DNA of 60,712 nucleotides from an uncultured Verrucomicrobiota bacterium (GTDB taxonomy: Bacteria > Verrucomicrobiota > Kiritimatiellia > RFP12 > UBA1067). Within the stretch, counting starts at the first letter, position 1. The number at the start of each line of letters is the position of its first letter. Positions 15,274 through 60,712 of this stretch are shown here, one piece after another. A program made the position numbers and the translations under genes. Under the pieces are notes generated by a model. That model was not told the origin of the DNA and searched no databases. It saw only the letters and a program-made list of their open reading frames with translations. The stretch is taken from positions 1 through 60,712 of the forward strand of contig CAMORM010000002.1 of assembly GCA_946623785.1 (NCBI GenBank). The letters are read 5' to 3'.

Positions 15274-15276
15274 GTA

Positions 15277-15311
15277 GTTCAAAGTTCAAAGTTTAAAGTT
15301 TAAAGTTTAGA
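15277..15311 (+). repeat. Five tandem heptamers in the rpsB-tsf spacer
   Basis: GTTCAAA GTTCAAA GTTTAAA GTTTAAA GTTTAGA. Starts 4 nt after the rpsB stop and ends 10 nt before the tsf ATG. Confidence 0.9.
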
Positions 15312-47356: not shown

Positions 47357-50300
47357 TCACCGAATGATCAAGGCCATGCCTGTATTAGCCGGGCGCACAA
47401 ACAGAACGCCGTCGGCCACACTCGCCTTGCAGCGATTGAAGTCGCCGGCGTTGCGGATGCGGAGGGCATTCGGAAGCGCAATCTCGCCGGAAACCGCCGC
47501 AACAGGCGTCCAGCCGGACGGAGCTTCTTCGTCGGCGGCAAGGCCGAAGTCGATCGCCGCGCGGTCGCCAAAGGCGAGGTCTCCATCGACGGAGAGAACG
47601 GAGCCTTCGTCGCCGAGGACGATTGCGTCTGTCACAGTAAGATTGCCCGCAACTGCGCCACTCGCGGCGATGCGCGCGACGGAAGCGCCAGTCTCGCCAA
47701 GATCGCCAAGATCGAGAATCGCGCCGTCGGAGACGGCCACGTCGCCGGACAGGGCGGCAGCGTTCGCCGCGACGAGCGTACCCGCCTCAACTTTGACAGG
47801 ACCCATGAATGTATTCGCGCCGGAAAGCGCGAGCGTGCCCGCGCCCTTCTTCACGAGGCCGCCGTCCGCCGCGCCGGAGAGCGCCGGGTCGGTCAGCATC
47901 GGCTGCGCGATTGTGTATGTCGCGTCGGCGGGAAGGTTCTCCGTGGATATCACCGCGCCGCCATCCGAGACGTAGACTACGTTCAGGTTCTGCATCGTGC
48001 GGTTCGCCTCGTCCTTGCCGTAGGGCATGAACGTGCCCCCGTTGAAATAGACCTTGGGCACGGCCTGGTCGTTGGTCATCATGATGTTCTCCGCCTTCAA
48101 AACGCCGCCGTTCAGGTAGAGTCCGAAATGGTAGAGGATGGATTCGTAGTGGACACCGCCTTTGGTGTTCACCTTGCTGTTCCGGCTCAGGTCGAGCAGC
48201 CCCGTCACGTCGACCTCGCCGTCGTTGAGTACGAGGCAACCTGGAATGCCGGTCTGATCGGCGATGGCGTTGTAGTAGTAGAGATAGAATGTGCCGCCGA
48301 CGGCGACCCGCCCTCCGTTGACCGTCAGCTGCGAGTACAGCTTGTCGCCGGATTTGCTGATGTTGCTTCCGAACCGCACGTCGCCGGAAACGTCGAGGGA
48401 TCCGCCGTTCACCGTGACTTCGCACCCGTAGCGGGGATTCTGGGTCGTATCCACCGGTGAGGTGCGGTAGACGGAATAGACGGCTGGAACCGAGAGCGAC
48501 GCCCCGCTTTCGATGGTGAGGAATCCCTGGTGGGGGTGGTTCGCGTCCACGCCCGGCGCCGGATTGTAGCCGAGGTAGAGTGCGCCGGATGCCGTGACGT
48601 TGCCGGAGATGGTGAGCGATGTGTCGACGCACGGATCGGCTTCGCCGCCATAGGCGCCGCCAAGGACGATCTTGTCGTAGCCGGCGTCGGCGGAGAGCGT
48701 CTTCGGGGTCGGATAGCTTGTGGACCCCGTGACGACAATGTCGTTGGCGATGGTGACGACGAGGGCCTTGTAGCCCGCGTAATCGCCGCTGGCAAGCGTC
48801 ACCTCTTCGGCGGAAAGCGTCGCACTTTCGGGCACGTCTGCGGGAAGGCGGAAGAGCGACGGATCGACGCTGCACGACGCCTGGTAGACGAGGGCGGTGT
48901 AGGTGCCGGACGAGAGGGTGGAATCCCTGAACCAGTCGCTCGTCACCGAAAACGCCACCGGCGAGAGGACGGAAAGCGTTCCGGAGACAACGACGTTGTT
49001 GAGTGCCTTGTTGTTCGATCCGTCGAAGGCCACCGGCTCCGTCGCGCCCGCTTCGCCGAGGGTAAGATTGCCAATCTGCATGGTCCCCTTGTTGTCGTAC
49101 GGACGGAAGCGCGAACCAGGCGCGAACGAGATGGTCTGGCCATCGAGCGACGTGGATGTTCCGCCGGCCGTCGCGCCGCTCTCGACGCGGATGCCGCCGT
49201 TGAGCGTCGAGCCCTTAAACCGACCGCCGAAGAGGACGAGCGAGCGGTCTCCGGGGATGCCCCTGACGGTGATGCCTCCGTCCAGGTCCGCGCAGTCCGG
49301 GTCGTGGTCGATGTGACCCTGCACGGATGCGCGCACCCATTCGAAGGCTTCGTTGTTGTTGTACCAAGCGTATCCTTTCGGCCGCTCCCATTTCGCAAGG
49401 TCGATGACGAGACCGTGTTCGCCAACGGTCGCCGGCTGGTAGTTCAGATAGAAGCGGTTGCCGTCGGTGCTGGTATCCAGGCCGACGGGATAGAGGGTGC
49501 CGCCGTTGAAGTGGAACATTGGACGTTCGGTCTGGTCTGTGTCGCGAAGGCTTTGCGAGTCTTCAATGCTCCGCGCGATGATGGAGCCGCCCTCCTCCAG
49601 GTAGAGGTCGAAGGAGGAACCGGTGGACGACACCGGGCGGATGTAACCATTCTCGACGCGAAGCGTGCCGCCGTCGTGGATGGTGAGCGTTCCGCCGGTT
49701 TCCGAGCCGATGACATTGCGGGACACGACCAGAGTCCCGCGGACCTCGATGTCGGTGTCCACGACGAGGTCTCCGGTCACCTTCACGTATCCGCCGCTGG
49801 TCGCGGCGGCATCCAGGGCGCTCGACGCGGCGGCGATGGTCATGGAGAGCGTCGCCGTGTCGCCGCTCGTCGTCACCGCGAAGGAGTAGACGTTGCTGCT
49901 AGCGGCAGTCGCGCATGACCAGTTGACGGCGCGGAGCGCGTCGGCGTAGGCGACGGGAACTTGCAGCACCGTGTAGGTGCCGGCGGCGTTCTTCGTCCCG
50001 ATTGCGGGCGTGTTGGCGTTGTACAGGGCGACCTTTGCGCTCGCCGGCAACGTGACGGAGTCGGTGACTTTCAGGGCGCAGAGCGTGTCGGCGAAGCCGA
50101 GGATGGCGCCTTCCCCAAGCGTCAGAGAGGCCACCGTCTTCTGTGAGCTTCCAGAGCGCAACTGGCATCCGCTCCCCACGGTGACAACCGAATCGTTCGG
50201 CAAATATCCGTTTTTGGCCATGAAGAGGGCGGCTCCATTCTTCAAAATCGTCGGCCCTTCGTAGGACTGCGTCGTGTAGTAGGCCCAGTTGCCACCGTCG

Positions 50301-51499
50301 AACGTCACGCCTTGCGCGGTCTCGCCCGCCCCGGCCGGAATGGCCGACATGTCCTTGTAGAGCTGCGCGTACTTCGCCGTCTTCCCGCCGCCGCGGAACG
50401 TCGCCCCCTTGGGGCCGATGGCGACGATTGGCCCGACATTCCCGTTATTGTCCGCCTGGAAGAACTGGAAGAAGTTTTCTCCGCCCGAGGCGCTGGAATC
50501 GTTGCGAACGATGCCGCCATTGATTGAAAGCCTTGTGACGGTGGAGCCGGGAGCCTCGATGACGGTGGCGATGCCGAGGATGCCGCCGTCTGTGACGGAA
50601 GCAGTCGTTGTCGAACCGCTTGTGGACGTGATTTTGTTGGCGCGGACCTCGCCTCCGTTGGACGCGGAAATGTCCATCACCGCCCCGCTGCCATTCGCAT
50701 AGAGAGAACCCTTTGTGGCGAACAGGCCGCCGTCATGGACATTGAGCGACCAGCAGTTCCCGGCGCCCGCGTAGGTGTAGCAGTATTCGGAGTTGGTGAT
50801 CACCGCCGTCCCGGAAATGTCCGTGACGTTCGTGGCGTAGGTGGTCTGGTATCCGGCGATGATTCGGTGATTGTTCATGTTCCATGCGCCGCCGGTCATG
50901 GTGAACGTTGATTTCGTGCGGGAACCCGGGGAAAGGAAGAGGTTTTTCTCTCCCATCGTCACGGTGCCGGCGCTCATCGTGAGCGAGACGTCTTCGCCGG
51001 TTCCGCCCTGGGTTCCAAGGAAGAACTGCAGGGAGAACGTCGATGTGCCGTCGGCGATCCCGAGGGCGCCGTCGGCAAGCGTGACAGCCTCGGCGAACGT
51101 GCTGTCGCCGGTGAGCGTCCAGCCGTCGGGGGCTTCGATGTTGAAGGCTCCCGTTCCCGTGATGTCGCCGCCAAAGGTGCCGGAGCCGCGCAGGGTGCCG
51201 CCGGAGACGGTGAACGTCCCCGCGCCGACGGGCGAAGGCCCGCCCGCAGGAATGTCGCCTGTGAGGATGAGCGTGCCGCCGGAAAGCGTCGTTCCGCCGG
51301 TGTGCATGTTGGAGGGATTGAGCTTCACTGCACCGGGGCCTGAGACCTGAACCGCTGTATCGCCCGTAAAGAGCGAAAGAACATTGGTCGTTACGCCCTC
51401 GGGCGGCTCGAGTGTTACCGTATCTGCCATCGCAGACGAGTGAACCGCTGCAATTGCCGAAACCAATGCAAGAATGCGAACCCGAGTAGAGAACATCAT
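47357..51499 (-). CDS. Giant secreted autotransporter-associated beta-strand-repeat protein
   Basis: 1380 aa. AGGAGG RBS and signal peptide MMFSTRVRILALVSAIAAVHSSAMA. Many Gly-rich repeats of the GGTLxLxG type (e.g. KKGAGTLALSGANTFMGPVKVEAGTLV). Ends in GMALIIR. Confidence 0.85.
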   Translation of the reverse strand: MMFSTRVRILALVSAIAAVHSSAMADTVTLEPPEGVTTNVLSLFTGDTAVQVSGPGAVKLNPSNMHTGGTTLSGGTLILTGDIPAGGPSPVGAGTFTVSGGTLRGSGTFGGDITGTGAFNIEAPDGWTLTGDSTFAEAVTLADGALGIADGTSTFSLQFFLGTQGGTGEDVSLTMSAGTVTMGEKNLFLSPGSRTKSTFTMTGGAWNMNNHRIIAGYQTTYATNVTDISGTAVITNSEYCYTYAGAGNCWSLNVHDGGLFATKGSLYANGSGAVMDISASNGGEVRANKITSTSGSTTTASVTDGGILGIATVIEAPGSTVTRLSINGGIVRNDSSASGGENFFQFFQADNNGNVGPIVAIGPKGATFRGGGKTAKYAQLYKDMSAIPAGAGETAQGVTFDGGNWAYYTTQSYEGPTILKNGAALFMAKNGYLPNDSVVTVGSGCQLRSGSSQKTVASLTLGEGAILGFADTLCALKVTDSVTLPASAKVALYNANTPAIGTKNAAGTYTVLQVPVAYADALRAVNWSCATAASSNVYSFAVTTSGDTATLSMTIAAASSALDAAATSGGYVKVTGDLVVDTDIEVRGTLVVSRNVIGSETGGTLTIHDGGTLRVENGYIRPVSSTGSSFDLYLEEGGSIIARSIEDSQSLRDTDQTERPMFHFNGGTLYPVGLDTSTDGNRFYLNYQPATVGEHGLVIDLAKWERPKGYAWYNNNEAFEWVRASVQGHIDHDPDCADLDGGITVRGIPGDRSLVLFGGRFKGSTLNGGIRVESGATAGGTSTSLDGQTISFAPGSRFRPYDNKGTMQIGNLTLGEAGATEPVAFDGSNNKALNNVVVSGTLSVLSPVAFSVTSDWFRDSTLSSGTYTALVYQASCSVDPSLFRLPADVPESATLSAEEVTLASGDYAGYKALVVTIANDIVVTGSTSYPTPKTLSADAGYDKIVLGGAYGGEADPCVDTSLTISGNVTASGALYLGYNPAPGVDANHPHQGFLTIESGASLSVPAVYSVYRTSPVDTTQNPRYGCEVTVNGGSLDVSGDVRFGSNISKSGDKLYSQLTVNGGRVAVGGTFYLYYYNAIADQTGIPGCLVLNDGEVDVTGLLDLSRNSKVNTKGGVHYESILYHFGLYLNGGVLKAENIMMTNDQAVPKVYFNGGTFMPYGKDEANRTMQNLNVVYVSDGGAVISTENLPADATYTIAQPMLTDPALSGAADGGLVKKGAGTLALSGANTFMGPVKVEAGTLVAANAAALSGDVAVSDGAILDLGDLGETGASVARIAASGAVAGNLTVTDAIVLGDEGSVLSVDGDLAFGDRAAIDFGLAADEEAPSGWTPVAAVSGEIALPNALRIRNAGDFNRCKASVADGVLFVRPANTGMALIIR

Positions 51500-51538: not shown

Positions 51539-53258
51539 AAATAGCTACTTCGGACGCAAGAGCGCGTGCCCACGCGAACGCATCGCGCCAGAAGTTGCTG
51601 GTGAAGCCCGTCGCGCCGAGATATGCGGCCTGCCGTAGATCGGCTGGCGAGTTGACGCCATAGACGCGAAACTCCAGTCCAGCGGAGCGCACCGCGTCAG
51701 CGTCTGCTATCGTCATCACATTTTTTGTCGTGTCGCATCCGGGACAGAACACTTCGACATTCGCCGCCTTGCACCTGTCAATCCATTCGCCGATGTTGAA
51801 CGGTTTGTCGCGCGGCAGAGCCGCGAGCCAGACTGTGCGGTACTTTGGATATTTCGCCTTGAAGTCCTTGAGCGCATCGTACTGGAACGACGAAACGACG
51901 ATATTCGCCTCGGTGAGTCCCGCCTTTCGGACTGCCGCGTCGAACAGGTCGGCATACTGCGGCGAATAACCCTTGATCTCCGCTTGCAGGACGCAATCTT
52001 TGGGGACGACAGCCAGGACCTCGTCTATGAGCGGGATTCTGTAGGGCCGGTCGAGCTTGTCCGCCGAGCCGAGGTCGAGCGTCGCGATGTCGTCGGGCGT
52101 AAGGTCGGCGACGCGCTTGGCGCAGCCTGTGTAGCGATTCAGTTCTTTATCGGCGTGCATGCACACCATCTGTCCTGACTTTGTGTGGTGGAAGTCGGTC
52201 TCGACCCAGCGCGCGCCGCTCTCGTATGCACGGCGTATCGCCTCGACGGTGTTCTGCGGGACGGATTTATCCCACATGCCGCGATGCGCGATGTCTATCA
52301 TTTTTAGCGGCGCGGTTCTTGGATGCGGCATGTCGAGCAAGAGAAAATCGACGACGACGGGCGAGTGGTCGGAAATGTGGATCGCATCTTCGTCGACAAC
52401 CACATCATGGCGCAACGCCTTTGCGCCGCGCAAATCGAAAACTATGTGGTCGAGCATGCGATGCCCCTTTTCGCCAGCCTTCCCGACACGCCCGCGGCAG
52501 CGGCCTTCCTCGTCGCGCACGAGCTTGCCGTGCTCCGACGGAATCTTCGACCGCACAGGCGCGACCTCGCCTGCGTCGGCGTATCCTGCTGCGACAAATG
52601 CTTTCAGCGCAGGCGAACCGGCCTCGCAGTTTAGATCGCCGCCGCCGATCACGGGAAGATCGCCCCATTTGGCGCGGACGGACGCGATCCGAGACAGTAC
52701 GTGCCGCGCATTCAGCTCGCGAAGTGCGTCCGATTCCACTCCGTTCGACTGCCACCAGAAATGCGTTGCGAACGCAATGAACCTGCGTCCGTCGGTCTTA
52801 TCCTCAAGCACCGCCCATGTCAGGCTCTTCTCGACCTGAAGCGAGACGTGGTAGAAGTCAAGGCCGTGGTCGAGCAGGTTCAGGCGTTCCTTTCTGTACA
52901 TCAGAGGTTCGTGGTTCACCCAGTTGGCGCGGCGTTCCGCGAGATTCGCGTCGGCGCGGACGAGTGCCGCATCCTCGTCCCCGCGAACTATACCATATTC
53001 GTCGAGTTCGCGAAAAAGGCGGCTGTTCCACCAGCCGGCGTTGACCTCCTGCCACGAAATGACGTCCGGTGCCTGGTGGCGGACGACGGAAATCGCCCGA
53101 CCTTCACGCTCTTCGGCAGAAAAGCCTCCGTAGCCGGCTCCGTAGATGTTGAATGACATGAACCGAAGCGGTTTCTGCTCCGGTGGTACGGCGATTGCCG
53201 TCAATGACGCGACAAGAACGATTATGCTCGCAACTGCACTTCTATTCATACTGAACAT
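51531..53258 (-). CDS. Secreted fusion of an endonuclease/exonuclease/phosphatase (EEP) domain and a glycerophosphodiester phosphodiesterase (GDPD) domain
   Basis: ORF trimmed to ATG 53258; ATG 53249 has better spacing to GAGG. EEP part: LRFMSFNIYG..SWQEVN..SDHSPV. GDPD part: IAHRGMWDKSVPQNTVEAI..VETDFH. Confidence 0.8.
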   Translation of the reverse strand: MFSMNRSAVASIIVLVASLTAIAVPPEQKPLRFMSFNIYGAGYGGFSAEEREGRAISVVRHQAPDVISWQEVNAGWWNSRLFRELDEYGIVRGDEDAALVRADANLAERRANWVNHEPLMYRKERLNLLDHGLDFYHVSLQVEKSLTWAVLEDKTDGRRFIAFATHFWWQSNGVESDALRELNARHVLSRIASVRAKWGDLPVIGGGDLNCEAGSPALKAFVAAGYADAGEVAPVRSKIPSEHGKLVRDEEGRCRGRVGKAGEKGHRMLDHIVFDLRGAKALRHDVVVDEDAIHISDHSPVVVDFLLLDMPHPRTAPLKMIDIAHRGMWDKSVPQNTVEAIRRAYESGARWVETDFHHTKSGQMVCMHADKELNRYTGCAKRVADLTPDDIATLDLGSADKLDRPYRIPLIDEVLAVVPKDCVLQAEIKGYSPQYADLFDAAVRKAGLTEANIVVSSFQYDALKDFKAKYPKYRTVWLAALPRDKPFNIGEWIDRCKAANVEVFCPGCDTTKNVMTIADADAVRSAGLEFRVYGVNSPADLRQAAYLGATGFTSNFWRDAFAWARALASEVAILL

Positions 53259-53275
53259 CCTCGTGTTTGCAAAAC

Positions 53276-53284
53276 ATTGTATCA
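53276..53284 (-). promoter_or_regulatory. Extended -10 box TGATACAAT (minus strand) upstream of the EEP-GDPD gene
   Basis: Reverse complement of ATTGTATCA, 17 nt before ATG 53258. Confidence 0.45.
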
Positions 53285-53335
53285 CAATCCCCCGCACACC
53301 ACAACTACAGCGGTAACCCCAGAAAACAAAGCCTT

Positions 53336-53382
53336 AGAGGGGCAGACCCTTCAGTATAAGCTTGACTGTATATGCTTGAATC
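53336..53382 (+). repeat. 47-nt direct repeat, copy a (left flank of the first tip cassette)
   Basis: Matches 55007..55053 at 36 of 47 positions by hand alignment. Shared core: GTATAAG..ACTG.ATATGCTTG. Confidence 0.6.
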
Positions 53383-53385
53383 CGT

Positions 53386-54399
53386 GTGCCGCGCGGCGAA
53401 ATTCTCGAACAGAAAACAGATGCGTACATTGATGGGATTTGGTACACTATCGCCAGAAACCAGATGACGTATAACACCACAGGCAAGCGGATAACATCCG
53501 AAAACCTCACCGGTCAGGTAACGACCACGGCGTGGAATCAATTCGCTTGCACTTCTGTTGACGAGTTGATTTCAGCCGCAAAGAACGCAAAGAGCGCAAA
53601 GCATGCCTGCGACTTCGACGACATCGGCAACCGCGAGACAGCATCCGAGCGCGGCACGAATTCGGTTTACGCGGCTAATCAGCTCAACCGGTATTGCTCG
53701 ATAACCACTTTGACTTCAGACGTCGGACTTCAGACTTCCAGTTTTCCCCCACAGTTTGATGACGATGGAAGCCAGACCCTCATCAAGACCGCGACCGGCA
53801 TCTGGCAGGTTCAGTACAACGGCGAAAACCGACCGATCCATTGGCAGTGCCAGCAATCAAACAATCAAACAATCACCAACAATTCCGAAAAGTGTCCTTG
53901 TGGAAGGGATATTGTATATTTTGAAGATTTCTGGCCGCCTGGGATGAATAGTTTTGAGAATGATGGTAGGAGTAATGTTTTTGGGACTGGTAACACAAAT
54001 TATGTGTTTAGAGGAAAAAGTGATTTTAATCCCAACAAGTTACTCAAAGATGGCGAGTGCGTCTGTCGATTGATTGTCGCGATGCATGGAGCATTCGGGA
54101 TAAGCAAGACTAGAGGTCCAGTTGCTGGCATAATTACTAAAAATGCAATCTTTCAAGAAACCAAAGAAAAGGCAGCGATATCCGAACTCTTTAAAGGGGT
54201 TACGTTTTGTGACTCGTGTGTTTTGGAATTGCGAACTTGTCATATAGGAAGAAGCGAGATACTAAAAGAAAACCTAAAAAAGGTAACAGGTGGCAAGTGC
54301 ACGATAGTGTTGCATGAACATCCTGTAATATGGAATGGAACAGAACCTTGGCTTGGAGTCTTGTCTGATCTGTTTCACGATTTTACTATTAATGACTAG
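53386..54399 (+). CDS. Chimeric ORF: RHS/YD-repeat-derived fragment joined to an AT-rich C-terminal domain (candidate polymorphic-toxin tip)
   Basis: YD-type strings DFDDIGNR, AANQLNRY, FDDDGSQTLIKTATGIWQVQYNGENRP. GC content then drops sharply after a CAATCAAA micro-array. The C-terminal part has His-Gly (IVAMHGAFG) followed by Cys (LRTCHIG). No signal peptide and no long RHS core. In-frame ATG 53464 is an alternative start. Confidence 0.55.
   Translation: MPRGEILEQKTDAYIDGIWYTIARNQMTYNTTGKRITSENLTGQVTTTAWNQFACTSVDELISAAKNAKSAKHACDFDDIGNRETASERGTNSVYAANQLNRYCSITTLTSDVGLQTSSFPPQFDDDGSQTLIKTATGIWQVQYNGENRPIHWQCQQSNNQTITNNSEKCPCGRDIVYFEDFWPPGMNSFENDGRSNVFGTGNTNYVFRGKSDFNPNKLLKDGECVCRLIVAMHGAFGISKTRGPVAGIITKNAIFQETKEKAAISELFKGVTFCDSCVLELRTCHIGRSEILKENLKKVTGGKCTIVLHEHPVIWNGTEPWLGVLSDLFHDFTIND
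53854..53886 (+). repeat. 8-nt phased micro-array CAATCAAA CAATCAAA CAATCACC (AA)CAATTCC at the RHS/tip junction
   Basis: Lies inside ORF 53386..54399 and encodes QSNNQTITNN. The GC content of the ORF falls immediately after it. Confidence 0.8.
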
Positions 54400-54411
54400 G
54401 AGAAGATAGCG

Positions 54412-54966
54412 ATGCGACATTTGTTGAAGAAATGCATTGTGCTACTTTGCGCTGTTGAGGCTGCTATCTTGGTGGAGATTGGCATTGAATCGCTTGTTGG
54501 TGCATACCGTGATGGTATTGCCTTTCACGAGCTGGCAAGAGACAGAGACGCTTTTTGCAGCGGCGTTTATCGCCTTAATGGCGGGGAATTCATATGGATC
54601 AAGGTGAAAAGATCTTTCCATCTGATCAGTTTCATTTTTAACTTGCCTGATGATGATTGCTATATTGTGGACGGGAAGGGGAGTGCCGTTAAGCGCGTTA
54701 GTACGAGGATACGTCTAAAAGGGCAAGGAGATCGTCTGTTTCCATGGGAGGATAGTATCTCGGAAGACGGTTTTTGCAGCGGCATCTACTCTATTCGTGA
54801 TTTTGCCAATATATCGGTTTTTCGTCGGAACAATGGGTATCAGCAAAAGTTTCTTTGTGTAGGAACGGCGCTCAATATACTTGCTTGTCTTACAGGCTTT
54901 GTTCTTCTTTGGCGAAAGGGCAATCGTTTAACAGGGTCAGATTCGAATGCCGCTAACTTAAGGTGA
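54412..54966 (+). CDS. Hypothetical membrane protein coupled to the chimeric ORF (candidate immunity protein)
   Basis: The upstream stop is embedded in the RBS (TAGGAG), 9 nt before the ATG. N- and C-terminal TM helices. Internal repeat AFCSGVYRL / GFCSGIYSI. AT-rich like the tip. Confidence 0.5.
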   Translation: MRHLLKKCIVLLCAVEAAILVEIGIESLVGAYRDGIAFHELARDRDAFCSGVYRLNGGEFIWIKVKRSFHLISFIFNLPDDDCYIVDGKGSAVKRVSTRIRLKGQGDRLFPWEDSISEDGFCSGIYSIRDFANISVFRRNNGYQQKFLCVGTALNILACLTGFVLLWRKGNRLTGSDSNAANLR

Positions 54967-55006
54967 TTTCGTCAGTCTCCGGCAAGACGACTCGTGATAT
55001 CGTCCG

Positions 55007-55053
55007 AGAGGATCTGACACTTCTGTATAAGTTCCACTGCATATGCTTGGTTC
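55007..55053 (+). repeat. 47-nt direct repeat, copy b (right flank of the first tip cassette)
   Basis: See 53336..53382. Lies 40 nt after the stop of the membrane ORF. Confidence 0.6.
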
Positions 55054-55120
55054 TAAGAAATTGTTTAGCGTTAAAAAGGGTCTGTACGCCATTTTCGTTG
55101 TTAGAAGCTCATAAGGCGCG

Positions 55121-55155
55121 ACCCTGCAACTTGCAGGGTTCTCGGTATTTGTTTC
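55121..55155 (+). terminator. Hairpin with a T-rich tail after the first tip/membrane-ORF pair
   Basis: ACCCTGCA act TGCAGGGT, followed by TCTCGGTATTTGTTTCTTC. Confidence 0.5.
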
Positions 55156-55220
55156 TTCTGCCTCGGGGAGAGAAACCTGACCCGGACATTATAGTTAACC
55201 AGGTGAAGTCGTTTGCGAAG

Positions 55221-56273
55221 ATGAAAAAATTGGTGATAATGACTGCCGGCGGAGTTGCTCTGCTGGTTGCGGCTGCGGTCGTGGTTGCGGCGCGGAATCG
55301 CCGACGGCCATTGCCGCCGCCTGATGCGCATGTGGCCTCTATTCCCCGTGCGGTGCAAGTCAAGGCGGTTGAAGGGAAGGTCGAGGCAAGTACACCGTTT
55401 GACGCCGCCGAAGTATCGTCTGCCGTCGCCGTCGTCTGTGGCGAGGATCCTGCAACGGCCGACCACTACGAGGCGAGAAACGACGCGCTGCGGTCGATTG
55501 CGCGGAGGCGGGACTTGCCGAAGGAGGATGTCGCGGTGCTGATGGCGTATCTCGCCTCCACCAATGACGTTTTGCGCGTAGAGCGAATGGCCGCGCTCAA
55601 GAACGACGTCATGAATCTCCTGCGCAACCAGAAGCCACAGGTGGAAGGGCTGGCGGAGACGTTAGTTGCGATGATAGAGGGAAGACCCGTTGCAGGGTTT
55701 GGTCGGTCAGGTAGGGCTGGCGTTCCACCGCCAGCCGCGGACGGCGATGGAACGCCGTCCCTACCGGGTAACACCATACATCCGCCAGTCGTGCTCGATT
55801 ACTGCATCCAGCACCTTGGTGCGATGCAGGGCGAGCTGGGCGACTCGGCGCGCAAGGTCGTTCGCGGGGTGTTCGTCAAGGCGGCGCGTGAGAAGACTAA
55901 GCCATACGCCGGGACCGCGCTTTATTCGTTTGCGGAGGACAAGCGCGCCACCGCTGCGCAGGCATGGGAGCTGAAGCGGCTGACGCTTGCGCTCTGCAGG
56001 CCCGGCGTCAACAACGTGGCGCGCATCGCGGCGATCCAGCTCGCGGGACAGCGCGGCTACTCCGAGGCGCTGTCGGCCTTGCGCGACACGCTTTCAGGTG
56101 AAAAGCGCGACGCCGTTCTCGACACGGTCTGCATCGGCTCCATCGGGCTTCTCGGCGACGCGAATGACATCGCGCTTATAGAGCGCTTCGCTGGCGACGC
56201 TCGGCACTCGTCCGCGGTAGATGCGGCGATCAAGCGGTTAAAGGGACGGTCGGGTGCAGACAGTGGGATATGA
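55221..56273 (+). CDS. N-terminally anchored HEAT/ARM-like repeat protein
   Basis: Track ORF 54963..56273 trimmed to ATG 55221 (MKKLVIMTAGGVALLVAAAVVVAA); the upstream part contains a terminator hairpin. Helical repeats such as ARIAAIQLAGQRGYSEALSALRDTL. GC-rich. Confidence 0.6.
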   Translation: MKKLVIMTAGGVALLVAAAVVVAARNRRRPLPPPDAHVASIPRAVQVKAVEGKVEASTPFDAAEVSSAVAVVCGEDPATADHYEARNDALRSIARRRDLPKEDVAVLMAYLASTNDVLRVERMAALKNDVMNLLRNQKPQVEGLAETLVAMIEGRPVAGFGRSGRAGVPPPAADGDGTPSLPGNTIHPPVVLDYCIQHLGAMQGELGDSARKVVRGVFVKAAREKTKPYAGTALYSFAEDKRATAAQAWELKRLTLALCRPGVNNVARIAAIQLAGQRGYSEALSALRDTLSGEKRDAVLDTVCIGSIGLLGDANDIALIERFAGDARHSSAVDAAIKRLKGRSGADSGI

Positions 56274-56310
56274 AGCTTTCGCAACTGTCGATGCCTGATT
56301 TCAAATGGAT

Positions 56311-56390
56311 TGTGGCGTGGCTCGTGGTTTGTGGGAATTGGGAATTGGCAACATTGCGATTGGCAACACTTTCACATTGGCAACATTCAG
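56311..56390 (+). repeat. Composite micro-repeat block: GTGG-array, GGGAATTGGGAATTGG, then three ATTGGCAACA repeats
   Basis: ATTGGCAAC occurs at 56344, 56359 and 56376. The block is related to 58211..58257 and, in inverted orientation, to 60150..60320. Confidence 0.75.
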
Positions 56391-56398
56391 TGAGGATG

Positions 56399-56522
56399 CT
56401 TGCGCCTGCGGCGCAGACGACTGGGGGCGACTTTGGGCTTGCGGCTCGGACGGTAGGTATTAGCCTCGGCCTCGGACTTGTCGCCTGGCGGCGACGGGCC
56501 GAGTCTAAGCGCCTATCCTCCC
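56399..56522 (+). repeat. ~124-nt direct repeat R1, copy a
   Basis: Differs from 58258..58379 by 6 substitutions and 2 single-nt indels (hand alignment). The last 50 nt are identical. Contains the hairpin GTCGCC tggc GGCGAC and ends in CCTATCCTCCC. Confidence 0.85.
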
Positions 56523-56606
56523 GACCTTGCCGCAAGCCAAGGTGCTTTTGGCGCGAACAGCGCGAAAGGCTGTGAGCGGAAGAGTGGCGGGCTGATGGGG
56601 GATTCT

Positions 56607-56738
56607 GGAAACAACATGGACAACGCAAGGACAACTTCTAATCGGTTGCGCGCCAACCGGCGCGCGCACTTGTTCCGTTGCCGCGGGCGGGTTCGCCCGC
56701 GGAGTCTGGGGTTGTCCAAGGTTGTCGAGGTTGTTTCC
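56607..56738 (+). repeat. Long imperfect inverted repeat (GGACAAC-array arms) enclosing two perfect hairpins
   Basis: Arms: GGAAACAACATGGACAACGCAAGGACAAC (56607..56635) and GTTGTCCAAGGTTGTCGAGGTTGTTTCC (56711..56738). Inner stems: CGGTTG/CAACCG (56643..56659) and CCGCGGGCG ggtt CGCCCGCGG (56681..56702). Confidence 0.7.
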
Positions 56739-56848
56739 ATATGCAGAGGGGGCTGTCCCTTTGGGCCAATTGGCATGTGAAGCAATCCTAATTAGCCTGG
56801 AATTGGTTGCAAATCCGGCCAATATGGTTGACGTACGTTGGGAGATTA

Positions 56849-56857
56849 TGCTACAAT
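56849..56857 (+). promoter_or_regulatory. Extended -10 box TGCTACAAT upstream of the AAA ATPase
   Basis: 24-nt leader containing GGAG before ATG 56882. Confidence 0.45.
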
Positions 56858-56881
56858 TCCCCTGTCTGGAGAAGAAAAGCC

Positions 56882-58177
56882 ATGAAAAGCGCCTTGAAAG
56901 AAGTCATGTCCCAGTTCTATGCGGACGGGATTCCGTCCGATGCGGTTGCGCGCTCTGGAAGTTTTCCGGAGGTTCGCAACAATGCGACTGTCGTCAAGGG
57001 GATGCGCAGGACGGGAAAGACGTATTTCACCTATCTGCGCATGCGCGAGCTGCTTGCCAAGGGCGTTCCAGTTGAGCGCATGGTGCATATAAACTTCGAC
57101 GACGACCGGCTGGCGACAATTACGGCTGCCGACCTGCATTGGGTGGTGGACCTGCATGCGGAGATGTTTCCAGATGCAGCCGACGAAAGATGCTATTACT
57201 TTCTTGACGAGCTTCAGGACGTCAAGGGCTGGGAGCGCTTTGCCAGAAGGCTAATAGACTCGCACCGCGTGCAACTTTGCCTGACGGGCTCTTCGTCGAA
57301 GATGCTTTCGGAGGATGTCGCGACCGAAATGCGCGGACGTTCCGCCGAAGTCGAGATATTCCCGCTGTCGTTTTCCGAGTTCCTCACGTACAACGGGATA
57401 TTCCCCGCTCCGCCAGCCTTGCCGGACGCGCCGCGGACGCGTGGCAGGCTCAAGAAGGCGCTTTCCGACTACATGGCTGTCGGCGGATTTCCGGATGTGC
57501 AGGGCCTGGACGCGACAGGTCGCATAATGATGCTTCAGGAATATGCGAATGCCGTAGTGTACCGAGACATCATAGAGCGACACGAAATCCCGAGCGTCCA
57601 GTCCTTGAAATACGTCCTTCAGTACCTGCTGCACAATTTCGGGAGAAAGGTGTCGGTGCGCGCCATCGCCGGCGTGCTCAGGCAGCTGGCGCTTCCATGC
57701 GACAGGGTGTCGCTTGGCAATTACCTTTCCTACTTCTCGGACTCCTATTTTGCCTATCCCGTTCCGCTGAGGACCGATTCACTTGCCGTGCGCAGGACTA
57801 ATCCTGACAAGTACTATCTTGTGGACACCGGCATGATCGGCGCAATGAAGGCGAAGAACGACGCGGAGAGGGGGTTTCTCCTCGAGAATGCGGTTTTCAT
57901 GGCGTTGCGGCGCGGATTCAACAAGATCGAATACTACAATACGAAGAAGGGCGAGGAGGTCGATTTCTTCGTGACGGACAAGGCGTCCGGCAAGGCGAGG
58001 CTTGTGCAGGTCTCGTACGAGATGGCGGACGAGAAGACGCGAGAACGAGAGTTCGCCGCCTTGCTTGCCGCCAGAAGGGAAACGGGAATAGACGATTGCA
58101 CGATTGTCACATGGGACGAGGAAGGCGAGGAAGGCGGCGTTCGCATTGTTCCGGCGTGGAAATGGCTGTTGCCGTGA
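56882..58177 (+). CDS. AAA_14 / DUF4143-type ATPase
   Basis: ORF trimmed to ATG 56882. Walker A GMRRTGKT and Walker B YYFLDELQ. C-terminal DUF4143-like part with a nuclease-like tail (YYLVDTG..EVDFFV). Confidence 0.85.
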   Translation: MKSALKEVMSQFYADGIPSDAVARSGSFPEVRNNATVVKGMRRTGKTYFTYLRMRELLAKGVPVERMVHINFDDDRLATITAADLHWVVDLHAEMFPDAADERCYYFLDELQDVKGWERFARRLIDSHRVQLCLTGSSSKMLSEDVATEMRGRSAEVEIFPLSFSEFLTYNGIFPAPPALPDAPRTRGRLKKALSDYMAVGGFPDVQGLDATGRIMMLQEYANAVVYRDIIERHEIPSVQSLKYVLQYLLHNFGRKVSVRAIAGVLRQLALPCDRVSLGNYLSYFSDSYFAYPVPLRTDSLAVRRTNPDKYYLVDTGMIGAMKAKNDAERGFLLENAVFMALRRGFNKIEYYNTKKGEEVDFFVTDKASGKARLVQVSYEMADEKTREREFAALLAARRETGIDDCTIVTWDEEGEEGGVRIVPAWKWLLP

Positions 58178-58196
58178 TTCCATATTGGGCTTGCGG

Positions 58197-58257
58197 CTCT
58201 GCGTTAAAACGGGAATTGGGAATTCGTGGTTCGTGGCTCGTGGTAATTGGGAATTGG
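58197..58257 (+). repeat. Composite micro-repeat block and outer inverted-repeat arm
   Basis: CTCTGCGTTAAAA (58197..58209) is the perfect inverse of 60315..60327. It is followed by GGGAATTGGGAATT, CGTGGTT CGTGGCT CGTGGTA, and ATTGGGAATTGG. Confidence 0.75.
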
Positions 58258-58379
58258 CTTGCGCTGCGCGCAGACGACAGGGGGCGACTTTGGGCTTGCG
58301 GCTCGGTCGGCAGGCATTAGCCTCGGTCCCGGACTTGTCGCCTGGCGGCGACGGGCCGAGTCTAAGCGCCTATCCTCCC
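58258..58379 (+). repeat. ~124-nt direct repeat R1, copy b
   Basis: See 56399..56522. Ends 5 nt before the RHS-homologous segment. Confidence 0.85.
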
Positions 58380-58383
58380 CGAG

Positions 58384-58620
58384 GCGTACATTGGCGAAGT
58401 TTGGTATACTATTGCCAGAAACTAGATGACGTACAATGAACATGGCAAGCGCATCCGAAGCGAGAACCTTGCCGGGCGGATTGCGACAACGGTTGCGCAA
58501 GGGAAAGGCGGCCTTGGGCTGAAAACGGACATGGCATATACAGTGAAGCATATACAGAAGGGGCCGACCTTTTTGGCCAATGGAATGTCGGAGAAGTGCA
58601 ATGATTGTTGCAAGGAGTAG
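58384..58620 (+). pseudogene. Second RHS-derived fragment with a short tip, interrupted by an in-frame TAG
   Basis: Reads AYIGEVWYTIARN*MTYNEHGKRIRSENLAGRIATT. It is homologous at nt and aa level to 53422..53530 (AYIDGIWYTIARNQMTYNTTGKRITSENLTGQVTTT). TAG 58423 replaces CAG. ORF 58426..58620 could still be translated from the conserved ATG. Confidence 0.5.
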
Positions 58621-58624
58621 AGTC

Positions 58625-58855
58625 ATGATTCTGAAAATTCTATTAGGCTTAGCCTCTTTTATGGCTATTCATTCATTGACCATGATGCACATGTGCCACG
58701 TCGGACTGAAATGCGATAATTCGAGTGAAATGACGTCGGAGTGTCTAGAAATGATTTCAAGTAATTATTCGGCATGGTGTGTTTCGGCTGCACTTGCATT
58801 TGCGATGGTTCTGATATGTTGTTTGTCGATGATCTTCCGAAGGTTCAAACGATAG
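58625..58855 (+). CDS. Small two-TM hypothetical protein coupled to the RHS remnant (candidate immunity protein)
   Basis: ATG 58625 lies 8 nt after GGAG, which overlaps the upstream TAG; this is the same geometry as at 54397..54412. AT-rich. Hydrophobic helices at both ends. Confidence 0.4.
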   Translation: MILKILLGLASFMAIHSLTMMHMCHVGLKCDNSSEMTSECLEMISSNYSAWCVSAALAFAMVLICCLSMIFRRFKR

Positions 58856-58874
58856 CTTAAAGGTATGTAAATAT

Positions 58875-58972
58875 GCTCTGACCCTTTTGCCCCCCGCATT
58901 ATCCAATATCCAGTGGTCGCGGAAATTGGATATTGGGTATTGGCTGTTGGATACTGGATATTTGCACATTGC
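58875..58972 (+). repeat. Left composite inverted-repeat arm of the DUF805/proteolipid cassette
   Basis: GCTCTGACCCTT (58875..58886) is the inverse of 60274..60285. There is a local 10-bp palindrome CCAATATCCA..TGGATATTGG (58903..58936). TGTTGGATACTGGATATT (58945..58962) is the inverse of 60150..60167. Confidence 0.8.
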
Positions 58973-59030
58973 GGGAAGTGCCTATATCCAATCAAAAGAA
59001 TCAAAAGAGTAACTCAGGTCTGATGGAGGA

Positions 59031-59594
59031 ATGAAAGAAATGAAATGCTTTTCGTGTGGCGAAGAACTGTTTGACAACGGCGAAGAACGTTTTCCGTGTC
59101 CGTACTGCGGGGCGGAGGTCTCGCGTTCGCAGACGGCTTCGACGGCAATGCGGCAAGACGACGATTCAAGCAACAGGGCCAACCGCCGTGAGTTCTGGCT
59201 AAAGACGCTTTTGCTGTTGGTGTTTGTCTTGGCCGTAATCGCATTCGGAAAATCATTTGAGGCGGAATTGCCGATATGTCTCGGTATCGCGCTCATTGGC
59301 TCGTGTGTGGTAGTGACGTTGTTTTACGCGTTTGGCGTTGTGCGCAGACGCCTGCACGACTTTGGATGGTCCGGGTGGTGGATTCTGCTGTATGTTTTAC
59401 TGCAGAATGTCTTCAAGAACGTAAGCCGTTCTTTCTATGATGATGTATGGTCGTGGGTCGAGCTGGTGGCCCTTATTTTAGTTGGCGTGCTGCCGGGAAC
59501 GCCTGGCAGAAATGAATACGGCACCCAGCCTCCCCCAAAGCAGTTTCCCTTCTGGCCGTGGAAAAAGGCGGGAGATGAGGGACCCTTGCGATAG
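59031..59594 (+). CDS. Zinc-ribbon plus DUF805-family inner-membrane protein
   Basis: N-terminal CFSCG..CPYCG ribbon. DUF805 strings RREFW..., RRRLHDFGWSGWWILL and PGTPGRNEYG. ATG 59040 is an alternative start. Confidence 0.7.
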   Translation: MKEMKCFSCGEELFDNGEERFPCPYCGAEVSRSQTASTAMRQDDDSSNRANRREFWLKTLLLLVFVLAVIAFGKSFEAELPICLGIALIGSCVVVTLFYAFGVVRRRLHDFGWSGWWILLYVLLQNVFKNVSRSFYDDVWSWVELVALILVGVLPGTPGRNEYGTQPPPKQFPFWPWKKAGDEGPLR

Positions 59595-59663
59595 AGGGTT
59601 CGAATTGACAGTCTGATAGCGAATGTGGCATACTGTTTTTCACTTGAAGAAGGAGATGCAAGA

Positions 59664-60128
59664 ATGAACATGTTCGAAAACCCGGTGTTGGTGAGGGGAG
59701 TCGCGATTGCCTCGGCAGGCGTCGTGGTGGGGCTTCTGATCTCGGTCTGCAGGGGGCTCGGCCGGCTTGTCTGGAAATACAAGCAGGAAGCCGCGTCCGT
59801 GCCCATGGAAGAGCTGCTGCCGGCGATAGGGATGGCCTTCGCGCCAGTCACCAAGCTTTTCTACGCCTTCGTCGCGACTACGGTCCTGCTTCAGCGGAAT
59901 CTTGCGGAATCGGAGCTTTCGACAGTGTCGACTCTGGCCTGCGGAGTGTTTGCGGCGGTTGCCGTCGTGCAGGGGGCGTTGGCGGCGAAGCTGATCAACA
60001 CGCCGACGGCGAAGGAGGGGCTGGTCGGCACGTTCGAGTTCAAGATGGCGATACTGGGCGCAGTAGAGACCTTGGCGGTGTTTGCGCTCGTCGGCACAAT
60101 CATCGTCTCCGCAAGGCCTTCCGCATGA
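59664..60128 (+). CDS. Four-helix proteolipid resembling the V/A-type ATPase K (c) subunit
   Basis: AAGGAG RBS. 154 aa forming two helical hairpins. The second hairpin carries Glu in a c-ring-like context (MAILGAVETLAVFALVGTII). The first hairpin lacks the acidic residue, as in duplicated V-type K subunits. No other ATPase gene is in the window. Confidence 0.45.
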   Translation: MNMFENPVLVRGVAIASAGVVVGLLISVCRGLGRLVWKYKQEAASVPMEELLPAIGMAFAPVTKLFYAFVATTVLLQRNLAESELSTVSTLACGVFAAVAVVQGALAAKLINTPTAKEGLVGTFEFKMAILGAVETLAVFALVGTIIVSARPSA

Positions 60129-60130
60129 TG

Positions 60131-60327
60131 TGCAAATGTGCAATTATCCAATATCCAGTATCCAACATCCAATTCCCAATAAATGGAGGAACGGAACAAT
60201 GACCAGAAGACAGGCGGGGATCATATCGGTGGTGGCGTTTGCCGCGCTACTTAAGCCTATGGGGGAATGAAGGAAGGGTCAGAGCTTATTGATACACCCA
60301 ATTGCCAATTGCGATTTTAACGCAGAG
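60131..60327 (+). repeat. Right composite inverted-repeat arm
   Basis: Contains AATATCCAGTATCCAACA (60150..60167), AAGGGTCAGAGC (60274..60285) and TTTTAACGCAGAG (60315..60327). Each is a perfect inverse of a left-side segment. Confidence 0.8.
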
Positions 60328-60387
60328 TTGCAGAGTAGCAGAGGGTGCTGTGGAGTTGGCTCGCTTCGCGAGCGCGCCGGGGAGCAG

Positions 60388-60441
60388 AACCACCAAACCA
60401 CAAAACCACCTAACCACTTAACCACCCAACCATTTAGCCAT
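60388..60441 (+). repeat. Strictly 8-nt-phased AACCAC array (six copies plus one degenerate)
   Basis: AACCAC/AACCAT start at 60388, 60396, 60404, 60412, 60420 and 60428, and AGCCAT at 60436. This is the inverse of the CGTGGTT arrays at 56311 and 58225. Confidence 0.85.
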
Positions 60442-60457
60442 GTGTAACAATTCGCTT

Positions 60458-60712
60458 GCTGCTTTCAAGAGGGAAAGCGGCGAAGCCGCCTATAAAACAA
60501 ACCTAGGGAATTGATTGCGCTTCAGGCGTGCGAAGCTAGGCGGAACGGGAATGCGCCCGCGCCGAAGGCGTCGGGTTGGCCGAGGGCGAAGCCCGAGCCG
60601 CTAAGCGGCCGCAAGGGCCCGCGTGGAGCAAATTTTGCGAAGCGTCGGAGTTAACTGAGAAGGCAGCGCCCAAGAGGCGGAGAGATCGGCAATCCATCTC
60701 GCCTCGACAGAA
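60458..60712 (+). ncRNA. Candidate structured RNA of unknown class, truncated by the window end
   Basis: No plausible ORF. There is a dense series of short GC stems capped by GAA/UAA/GCAAG loops: GCGGC-GAA-GCCGC 60477..60489, CCCGCGCC-GAA-GGCGTCGGG 60556..60575, GGGC-GAA-GCCC 60584..60594, GCCGC-TAA-GCGGC 60597..60609, and 60676..60703. Confidence 0.3.

Follow-up and report, generated by a model that had tools for sequence, protein, structure and literature searches.

A probable variable accessory region with decaying orphan RHS sequences and lineage-wide extragenic repeats on a rumen/gut-type Kiritimatiellae chromosome

The stretch of DNA analysed here, referred to as the window, comprises 60,712 nt (contig CAMORM010000002.1) and carries near its right end an island of about 7 kb (53300-60330). 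From left to right, this island contains a chimeric open reading frame (ORF) made of an RHS core fragment and a toxin-type domain, a small ORF, a second RHS fragment, a HEAT-like gene, a gene for an ATPase with AAA_14 and DUF4143 domains, an RHS remnant followed by a small membrane ORF, and a gene pair whose first member encodes a DUF805 protein. Between these units lie two extragenic repeats, called R and P, and arrays of short period. We consider that the region is probably a variable accessory stretch of a chromosome from the rumen/gut-type Kiritimatiellae, combining decaying orphan RHS sequences with extragenic repeats that occur throughout the lineage. The functions named in this work (promoter, terminator, toxin, immunity, mobility) are all inferred from sequence.

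An earlier reading of the same DNA, here called the original prediction, had described an accessory island of same-strand cassettes delimited by a private family of repeats, and much of what it had observed was borne out. According to the ORF listing, every credible ORF between 53.3 and 60.3 kb lies on the plus strand, and measured GC content alternates, as had been claimed, between AT-rich blocks (0.40-0.47 at 53.85-55.05 kb and 0.42-0.44 at 58.5-59.1 kb) and native-like sequence (0.56-0.67 in the remaining island). The RHS chimera, the AAA_14/DUF4143 ATPase, the DUF805 protein and the RHS remnant were all identified, and a repeat is present at every junction. As about half of the non-coding DNA of the window sits within these 7 kb, the concentration of repeats in the island says little. 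The remainder of the window, judged by a domain scan of the ten largest ORFs between 1 and 47 kb, encodes ordinary chromosomal functions, among them ClpB, an ABC transporter, an AMP-binding (acyl-CoA) ligase and a CitMHS transporter. No tRNA genes were detected in the window by ARAGORN and no Rfam families were detected in it at the gathering threshold, only chance-level matches being obtained, and the same was true at an E-value threshold between 56.2 and 56.9 kb. Searches with Pfam and NCBIfam revealed no integrase or transposase domains in the island ORFs, in agreement with the predicted lack of integrase, transposase and recombinase genes, but a remnant of ten codons from the 3' end of a RAYT-like gene (REP-associated tyrosine transposase, where REP stands for repetitive extragenic palindromic) is present at 58493-58522.

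The 47-nt direct repeat that had been noticed at 53336 and 55007 was confirmed, and a third, inverted copy was detected in addition. The three REP-like copies of this repeat, R, are R1 (53334-53380, plus strand), which is directly followed by an RHS fragment, R2 (55005-55051, plus strand), which is located upstream of the HEAT-like gene, and R3 (58534-58581, minus strand), which is a right-end copy of the type found after RAYT-like genes. No further copies were found in the window, even when 11 mismatches in 37 nt were allowed. R1 consists of a short palindrome, GGGGCAGACCC, and two GTATA(A/T)GCTTG units, and the consensus obtained from aligned copies, AAAAGGGTCaGACCCTTCTGTATATGTTTTACTGTATATGCTTGa, shows that R has about 48 nt and is composed of a short palindrome and then two CTGTATATG units 14 nt apart. 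When a degenerate 26-nt core pattern of R was searched against a species-representative genome collection, 62 DNA stretches were matched, nearly all of them from rumen or gut metagenome-assembled genomes (MAGs). The MAGs bearing R are labelled Kiritimatiellae/Kiritimatiellia, Verrucomicrobia, Lentisphaerae or unclassified, with the exception of one Prevotellaceae MAG and one Cryptobacteroides MAG. The MAG RUG10963 contains at least 12 exact-pattern copies on nine contigs and several other MAGs contain 3-6, these counts being taken from incomplete genomes. Classical REPs number in the hundreds.

R is positioned mainly in intergenic DNA between co-directional genes, and the genes downstream of it are functionally unrelated to one another. 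For 38 of the 58 dereplicated canonical R copies, an extended -10-like motif (TGnTAnnnT, typically TGGTATAAT or TGGTAGACT) was found at most 300 nt downstream on the same strand, and three control positions gave 5, 8 and 3 such cases. In a second type of flank, R follows stop codons at a distance of 11-14 nt and in opposite orientation. Solo left-end copies of R usually precede a predicted extended -10 promoter and a gene, and right-end copies look terminator-like; R itself probably brings a terminator-like hairpin and adjoins promoters. The possibility that R is a simple sigma-70 promoter was rejected, as there is no good -35/-10 pair inside R, and a generic promoter scan of the island gave no more sites than shuffled sequence. 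At one locus, orthologous in two MAGs (L058:5172-5405 and L060:43-273), R(+) and R(-) are only 208 nt apart around a TGGTATAAT promoter, an arrangement that looks like a REPIN-type doublet or an invertible promoter. Apart from this pair and from R-flanked mini-genes described below, most copies are solo and directional. Repeats of invertible promoters or shufflon sites were also tried as an explanation for R and were rejected as the main one, given that solo copies predominate and that R is linked to a gene for an HUH transposase.

At locus L049 (3087-4317), this linked gene encodes a protein of 375 aa that combines an IS200-like Y1_Tnp domain (2e-8, 34.9 bits, cut-off 23) with a Fic-like_C winged-helix domain (9e-17). 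The HUH motif NHIHVFIF and the sequence YVDCNP are visible in the protein, and the gene is flanked by R(+) 40 nt upstream and by R(-) 11 nt downstream. The corresponding protein family comprises 94 clusters with lengths of 360-385 aa, nearly all of which possess both domains and one of which bears the JGI name 'REP element-mobilizing transposase RayT / HxlR regulator'. Family members with 82%, 61% and 51% identity (L077, L079, L080-L082) have inverted flanking repeats that are R-like and have diverged along with the protein; the flanking repeat of L079 is a perfect 35-nt palindrome, and in L080-82 GGGGAATTC repeats are located directly upstream of the R copy of the RAYT-like gene. Because of its distribution, its inverted flanking of a Y1_Tnp gene and this co-divergence, R can be classed as a REP-like element of an IS200/RAYT-type system. 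Smaller R-flanked units of about 300 nt were observed in at least six loci (L024, L037, L038, L043, L062 at 351-700, and L067). They are composed of R(+), a TTGACT...TGGTAGACT promoter, a gene for a winged-helix-only protein of about 75 aa, and R(-), and may represent decayed RAYT genes or small autoregulated genes for DNA-binding proteins.

With such winged-helix-only genes flanked by R in at least six loci, with the strong preference of R for an orientation that places extended -10 motifs downstream, and with tandem 14-nt units that resemble protein-binding direct repeats, R might also be mainly regulatory, that is, a putative binding site of the winged-helix (Fic-like_C) protein ahead of many promoters, the genes of the island then belonging to a regulon and the repetition of R being due more to regulation than to mobility. 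This appears rather unlikely: the repeats beside the linked gene co-vary with its product, in which the HUH motif and a Y..NP motif are retained, R is also present at the 3' ends of genes in opposite orientation, and R is found inside disrupted RHS coding sequence. A regulatory role overlaps with the reading of the island as an accessory region of orphan RHS sequences and REP-like elements, and the two are not separable from these data.

The RHS sequence that follows R1 belongs to a chimeric ORF of 337 aa (53386-54399, plus strand) for which no match was obtained in Pfam or NCBIfam. Its residues 1-165 (53386-53880) are an RHS core fragment and align with many homologues named 'RHS repeat-associated protein', which carry RHS_repeat or TEN_YD-shell domains and run on to the end of the core (...YYNYRHY...GRW..RDP...DxLGL). 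The chimera departs from these homologues after ...QSNNQTITNN, jumping to the low-GC sequence SEKCPCGRD, and about 200 core residues including the autoproteolytic motif DPxGL are missing from it. A demarcation of the PxxxxDPxGL type between core and C-terminal domain is not present in the chimera, and the homologues show ...DxLGL ahead of the domain. One homologue, P0007, is an RHS fragment that departs at nearly the same core position, after YNGENRPI, and continues with a different toxin-like sequence containing an HExxH motif; DPxGL is likewise missing there, which hints at a recurrent breakpoint in that region of the core.

For the low-GC C-terminal part of the chimera (about residues 166-337; 53881-54399), an exhaustive profile search gave 48 relatives. 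The domain forms the extreme C-terminus of these proteins, which differ widely in length and several of which have RHS repeats, as in the cases of P0246 (923 aa) and P0269 (2014 aa), both with RHS_repeat. As the relatives carry the domain after DxLGL at the C-termini of RHS proteins and share with the window protein an invariant His-Gly, Glu and Cys, their comparison indicates that the C-terminus of the chimera is a genuine RHS C-terminal toxin-type domain, belonging to a family of RHS toxin domains with no prior characterisation. An AlphaFold model of the domain has an alpha/beta structure with a pLDDT of 86.7, and a Foldseek search of this model against the PDB gave nothing below an E-value of 0.035. 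The best matches were flavodoxin-like, with weak caspase/CHAT matches, all below significance, so that a caspase-like peptidase is a guess only. In its present form the chimera would not be deliverable as a toxin, because it is devoid of the shell, the N-terminus and DPxGL. Twelve nucleotides after the chimera, an ORF of 184 aa (54412-54966, plus strand) begins, which is low in GC, has hydrophobic N- and C-terminal segments and matched no family in Pfam or NCBIfam; position is the only ground for regarding it as a putative immunity gene. Small ORFs downstream of RHS fragments may persist as immunity genes.

A second RHS fragment of about 30 nt, encoding SSVSGKTTRDI (54969-55001, plus strand), is located directly before R2, and the 17-mer GTCTCCGGCAAGACGAC within it is identical in the intact RHS gene of L037. 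In intact RHS genes, this peptide sits 4 codons 5' of RGEI, which is where the flank of R1 starts. R1 is directly followed by RHS sequence from ...RGEILEQKTDA, and the same junction was found in L007 (twice), L008 and L032, making five copies in four sources. The flanks of R1 and R2 thus rebuild one RHS site, which implies a single ancestral insertion of R in an rhs gene. A third piece of RHS sequence, the remnant at 58381-58492 (plus strand; EAYIGEVWYTIARN*MTYNEHGKRIRSENLAGRIATT), aligns with RHS repeat-associated sequence and is a 5'-truncated pseudogene with an in-frame TAG. The same in-frame TAG is present, at 93% identity, in the MAG RUG14632 (L032), where the copy of the remnant keeps its own R and 40 further nucleotides, and since the stop is common to both the pseudogene must be old and inherited.

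P2, the second copy of the palindrome P and lacking its last 20 nt or so, abuts this 5'-truncated RHS remnant. At 58492/58493 the remnant is joined to the last ten codons of a RAYT-like gene (58493-58522, plus strand; LRKGKAALG*, to be compared with ...LLRKGREVLA* in L049 and ...LLRKEKAALE* in L007), after which R3 follows in right-end orientation. In L007, a related junction between remnant and RAYT-like gene exists with about 850 nt more between them. Judged by these comparisons, the junctions of the island are truncations and illegitimate joins and not precise cassette boundaries. The presence of repeats at the RHS breakpoints points to insertion and then deletion, and gives no pointer to a dedicated cassette-exchange system.

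No full-length rhs gene was found upstream of the chimera, where the neighbour is a divergent GDPD gene; no RHS domain was detected in the ten largest ORFs of the region from 1 to 47 kb, to which the domain scan was applied, and tblastn of the RHS segment against the window gave matches in the island only. Among relatives, a full-length rhs gene next to the orphans is absent in L007 and present in L008. Upstream of its two R-bounded RHS orphans, L007 carries a large gene (L007:1-7536) that was considered as an RHS gene; this was rejected, since the gene encodes a Flg_new/PATR repeat surface protein. In the window, too, the orphan has a gene for an autotransporter-repeat protein (47357-51499) in its vicinity, and no rhs gene.

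The second repeat, P, which had been predicted as a 124-nt direct repeat at 56399 and 58258, was confirmed as a core match of 112 nt with 95% identity (56411-56522 against 58268-58379, E 1e-44). With its flanks, P1 (56399-56545, plus strand) is a complete copy of an extragenic palindrome of about 150 nt, and the shortened P2 covers 58258-58379 (plus strand). BLAST detected no further copies of this long repeat in the window. P1 folds as a long hairpin (-87.4 kcal/mol, z -3.96). A 24-nt core of P matched three metagenome contigs, L070 and L071 with one copy each and L072 with at least two full copies, which are 4 kb apart and accompanied by diverged inverted partners, and none of the three contigs has a flank in common with the window. 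By these properties P qualifies as a dispersed extragenic palindrome of the MITE/REPIN kind (where MITE denotes a miniature inverted-repeat transposable element).

Arrays of ATTGG, GGAATTGG and GTGGTT are present, as had been described, at 56.31, 58.21 and 58.9 kb, with their inverted partners at 60.13-60.43 kb. With units of 7-8 nt, such micro-arrays accompany R and P and can be counted as a third kind of lineage-wide extragenic repeat in the non-coding gaps of the island. Next to P1, short-period arrays at 56311-56390 (plus strand) comprise GTGG..., GGGAATT repeated 2.4 times and ATTGGCAAC...; next to P2, similar arrays occupy 58183-58257 (plus strand), with 58225-58258 being 88% identical to 56316-56349; and an octamer, AACCACCA, is repeated 5.6 times at 60388-60432 (plus strand). 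In 441 kb of related loci, 30 arrays with periods of 7-9 nt were found, with varied units (GTTGAAAA, TGAAAGGT, TATCCAG and others), and they are often located between R and the downstream -10 motif. A heptamer array, AGTTTAA repeated 4.9 times, also occupies a small gap between genes in the core part of the window (15276-15309), which shows that arrays of this type occur outside the island as well. Beyond the octamer array, 60440-60712 is a GC-rich non-coding tail with a moderate fold stability (z -2.2), inside which the window ends; this tail could be another extragenic structured repeat.

To the left of the island, the divergent GDPD/EEP gene has orthologues with 64-95% protein identity, which are found on short contigs. 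Three relatives offered usable flanks, of which two were informative and the third, L076, provided only 250 nt, and the right border of the island lies beyond the window. In L076, the closest relative with flanks (89% nucleotide identity), the left side is syntenic, homology ends at 53171 and the next 250 nt are unrelated. Elsewhere, the island side of the flanking gene is occupied by a divergent MetY-like gene (L073) or by scpA (L075). Since the island-side sequence differs in all three relatives, the locus can be regarded as variable. Homology to L076 ends within the 5' end of the GDPD/EEP gene (53171-53297), so that the break in synteny is in coding sequence and the first 40 or so codons, the signal-peptide region, differ from those in L076. 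With regard to the features of an integrase- or tRNA-bounded island, the region has neither tRNA nor integrase, its composition is patchy, and its neighbours differ in the three relatives on short contigs.

From these observations a history of the locus can be proposed. An R element would once have inserted in an RHS gene between '...GKTTRDI' and 'RGEI...', and the 3' part of the interrupted gene would have become an orphan module with R as its fixed upstream edge. The site now split between the flanks of R1 and R2 would later have been permuted, in a series of events that is not reconstructable, and later deletions and illegitimate joins at or near copies of R and P would have given the present patchwork, the joins in question being those of P2 to the RHS remnant, of the RHS remnant to the 3' end of the RAYT-like gene, and of the core fragment to the toxin domain. 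Repeats would mark gene boundaries because such elements survive there.

Several points weigh against an interpretation as an accessory region of decaying RHS orphans and lineage-wide REP-like repeats. The palindrome of R has only 5-6 bp and its most conserved part is the 14-nt tandem pair, unlike what is seen in classical REPs. Among the R-selected genome loci there is one full-length RAYT-like gene, many contigs of the RAYT-like family are only 1-3 kb long, and the distinction between a RAYT and an ordinary insertion sequence (IS) hinges on copies per genome. Copies of P elsewhere come from three contigs only, and the copy counts of R and P for this organism are limited to the window. The window is possibly a metagenome assembly, and the join between core and toxin domain could then be an assembly chimera. 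Finally, the three canonical R copies in the window are all found inside the island, and each of them touches RHS sequence. R might accordingly be an active partner in RHS rearrangement, the RAYT-like HUH/winged-helix protein acting on R, spreading promoter-bearing units and capturing or reshuffling RHS modules. Such an activity would explain the three RHS-touching copies as well as the same start residue behind R in the orphans of several genomes, but we judge it quite unlikely.

The genes between the RHS sequences have to be considered before the remaining explanations are weighed. The HEAT-like gene (55221-56273, plus strand) has native GC and encodes an all-helical protein with an N-terminal transmembrane helix; of the predicted HEAT similarity, only a sub-threshold HEAT_2 match was recovered (E 0.0034, 18 bits against a cut-off of 27.7), and a single-sequence structure model was unusable (pLDDT 41.6). 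Its product shows 68-72% amino acid identity to those of genes in L001 and L041, L001 in addition having a duplicated N-terminal piece of the gene, and L023 has a fragment for 142 N-terminal residues. R is located upstream of the gene or fragment in L001, L023 and L041, and RHS-related sequence is present in L001 and L041. The HEAT-like gene is thus a conserved gene of the lineage, present beside or near RHS sequence, and not a mobile toxin cassette.

The following gene (56882-58177, plus strand), bracketed by P1 and P2, encodes the AAA_14 and DUF4143 ATPase of 431 aa, which matches the PADLOC profile PDC-S01 end to end (4.8e-103), and has ahead of it a good extended -10 promoter-like site (56828-56857, plus strand; TTGACG-18-TACAAT with an upstream TG). 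Similar ATPases are encoded elsewhere, downstream of R (L022, L034 and L064) or between P copies (L072). Compared with known systems carrying such ATPases (PDC-S01), the ATPase of the window is similar in its end-to-end match but is encoded by a single gene, is a candidate for defence only and is unrelated to the RHS modules. The membrane ORF that follows R3 (58625-58855, plus strand) has 76 aa, or 91 aa if read from 58580, is low in GC and matched no family in Pfam or NCBIfam.

The last two genes of the island encode a membrane protein with a Zn-ribbon and a DUF805 domain (59031-59594, plus strand) and a small polytopic membrane protein (59664-60128, plus strand; ORF 59625-60128 with an ATG start assumed at 59664) preceded by a promoter-like site at 59605-59634. 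The latter had been described as V-type proteolipid-like, of which a weak, sub-threshold similarity to ATP synthase c/K subunits in NCBIfam is all that was recovered. This pair is bracketed by nested imperfect inverted repeats composed of arrays and degenerate R halves, AAGGGTCAGAGC. The left block (58856-58972) contains a degenerate R half (58862-58886, minus strand) and GGATATT-type heptamer arrays (58921-58962), and the right block (60135-60332) contains TATCCAA arrays (60145-60181), a degenerate R half (60274-60298) and, at 60300-60332, the partner of 58192-58224. The three nested pairs are 58192-58224/60300-60332, 58862-58886/60274-60298 and 58925-58972/60135-60181, and the left set is split by a block of 640 nt that holds P2, the RHS remnant, the RAYT remnant with R3 and the 76-aa ORF. 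Inside the right set, an ORF of 24 aa with a GGAGG site is present at about 60200-60271.

The original prediction had interpreted the island as an array of toxin cassettes in which locus-specific repeats serve as recombination sites for gain, loss and inversion, the recombinase being encoded outside the window. Repeats at every junction, R touching RHS breakpoints three times, the nested inverted repeats around the DUF805 pair and the R(+)/R(-) pairs 208 nt apart around a promoter in L058 and L060 all fit such a system. However, the repeats are not a private family: R is spread over the lineage and mostly located upstream of unrelated genes, P occurs in unrelated contexts in three other contigs, and arrays are common in related loci. 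The R family, with its many copies per genome, is or closely approaches the genome-wide REP-like family that the original prediction had itself named as incompatible with its model. Moreover, R is tied to the gene for an HUH transposase and not to a site-specific recombinase, and the proposed repeat-defined boundaries resemble truncations and not precise exchanges. The notion of orphan or silent polymorphic-toxin modules stands insofar as RHS material is present, but the HEAT-like, ATPase and DUF805 units, which make up three of the five 'cassettes', are no toxin modules. We therefore hold a cassette system of this kind to be very unlikely. An integron-like cassette array with P as attC-type site, which would agree with ORFs on one strand and with an imperfect palindrome of attC-like size beside a gene, is given almost no probability, as there is no integrase domain in the island ORFs, P is present at two junctions only, no GTTRRRY/RYYYAAC ends are visible in P by eye (without an attC covariance model), and the P copies of L072 bracket a block of four genes and adjoin diverged inverted partners.

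The reading as an accessory region with RHS orphans and REP-like repeats can be compared with systems described before. Orphan rhs-CT/rhsI modules (PMC3150448, PMC3967940) resemble the island in that a retained rhs core fragment precedes a variable C-terminal domain, that full-length RHS proteins elsewhere carry this domain as well, and that a small ORF next downstream, low GC and in-frame stops in the retained core are present. The island is unlike them in that the window is devoid of a full-length rhs gene upstream and that the DPxGL demarcation is deleted in the chimera. Furthermore, the 5' edge of the core is constant in the type seen in the window (five copies, four sources), where a REP-like element provides it, whereas in described Rhs orphans the 5' edge of the retained core is a variable end point of homology (PMC3150448, PMC3967940).

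REP/REPIN-RAYT systems (PMC3116915, PMC3337134, PMC5581495), for which the criteria applied were taken from PMC3337134 and PMC5581495, share with R a short, mostly extragenic multi-copy repeat with a palindrome, which flanks an IS200-related HUH/Y1 gene in inverted orientation and co-varies with the protein. In contrast to such systems, the protein from Kiritimatiellae is about twice as long as usual RAYTs and has a C-terminal winged helix (Fic-like_C), R has a stem of 5-6 bp and a 14-nt tandem pair, its copies are for the most part solo, directional and promoter-adjacent and not hairpin doublets, and the host is a lineage of the Planctomycetes-Verrucomicrobia-Chlamydiae (PVC) group known from MAGs only. 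IS200/IS605 elements likewise possess a Y1 HUH gene, distinct structured left and right ends, and the promoter of the gene within the left end. Unlike in these elements, solo R ends are far more numerous than full elements in the loci sampled, the short R-flanked derivatives keep the winged-helix part only, and no tnpB is present. In the case of P, an imperfect palindrome of about 150 nt that is dispersed, extragenic and sometimes accompanied by diverged inverted partners (L072) is reminiscent of MITEs and of BIME- or ERIC-like palindromes, but no target-site duplication or cognate transposase was identified for P and its copies amount to a handful.

To our knowledge, the fusion of a RAYT-like protein with a winged helix, the directional and promoter-adjacent solo occurrence of R, and R as fixed 5' edge of an orphan RHS family are undescribed. 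With this analysis, the idea of a new cassette system defined by repeats falls away, and the locus returns to the ordinary orphan-RHS and accessory regions. The result extends to the PVC group the biology of REP elements and RAYTs, for which Proteobacteria have been the main subjects of study, and R provides a marker of assembly breaks in MAGs. It also raises the question whether R-type elements supply promoters to orphan toxin and immunity genes.

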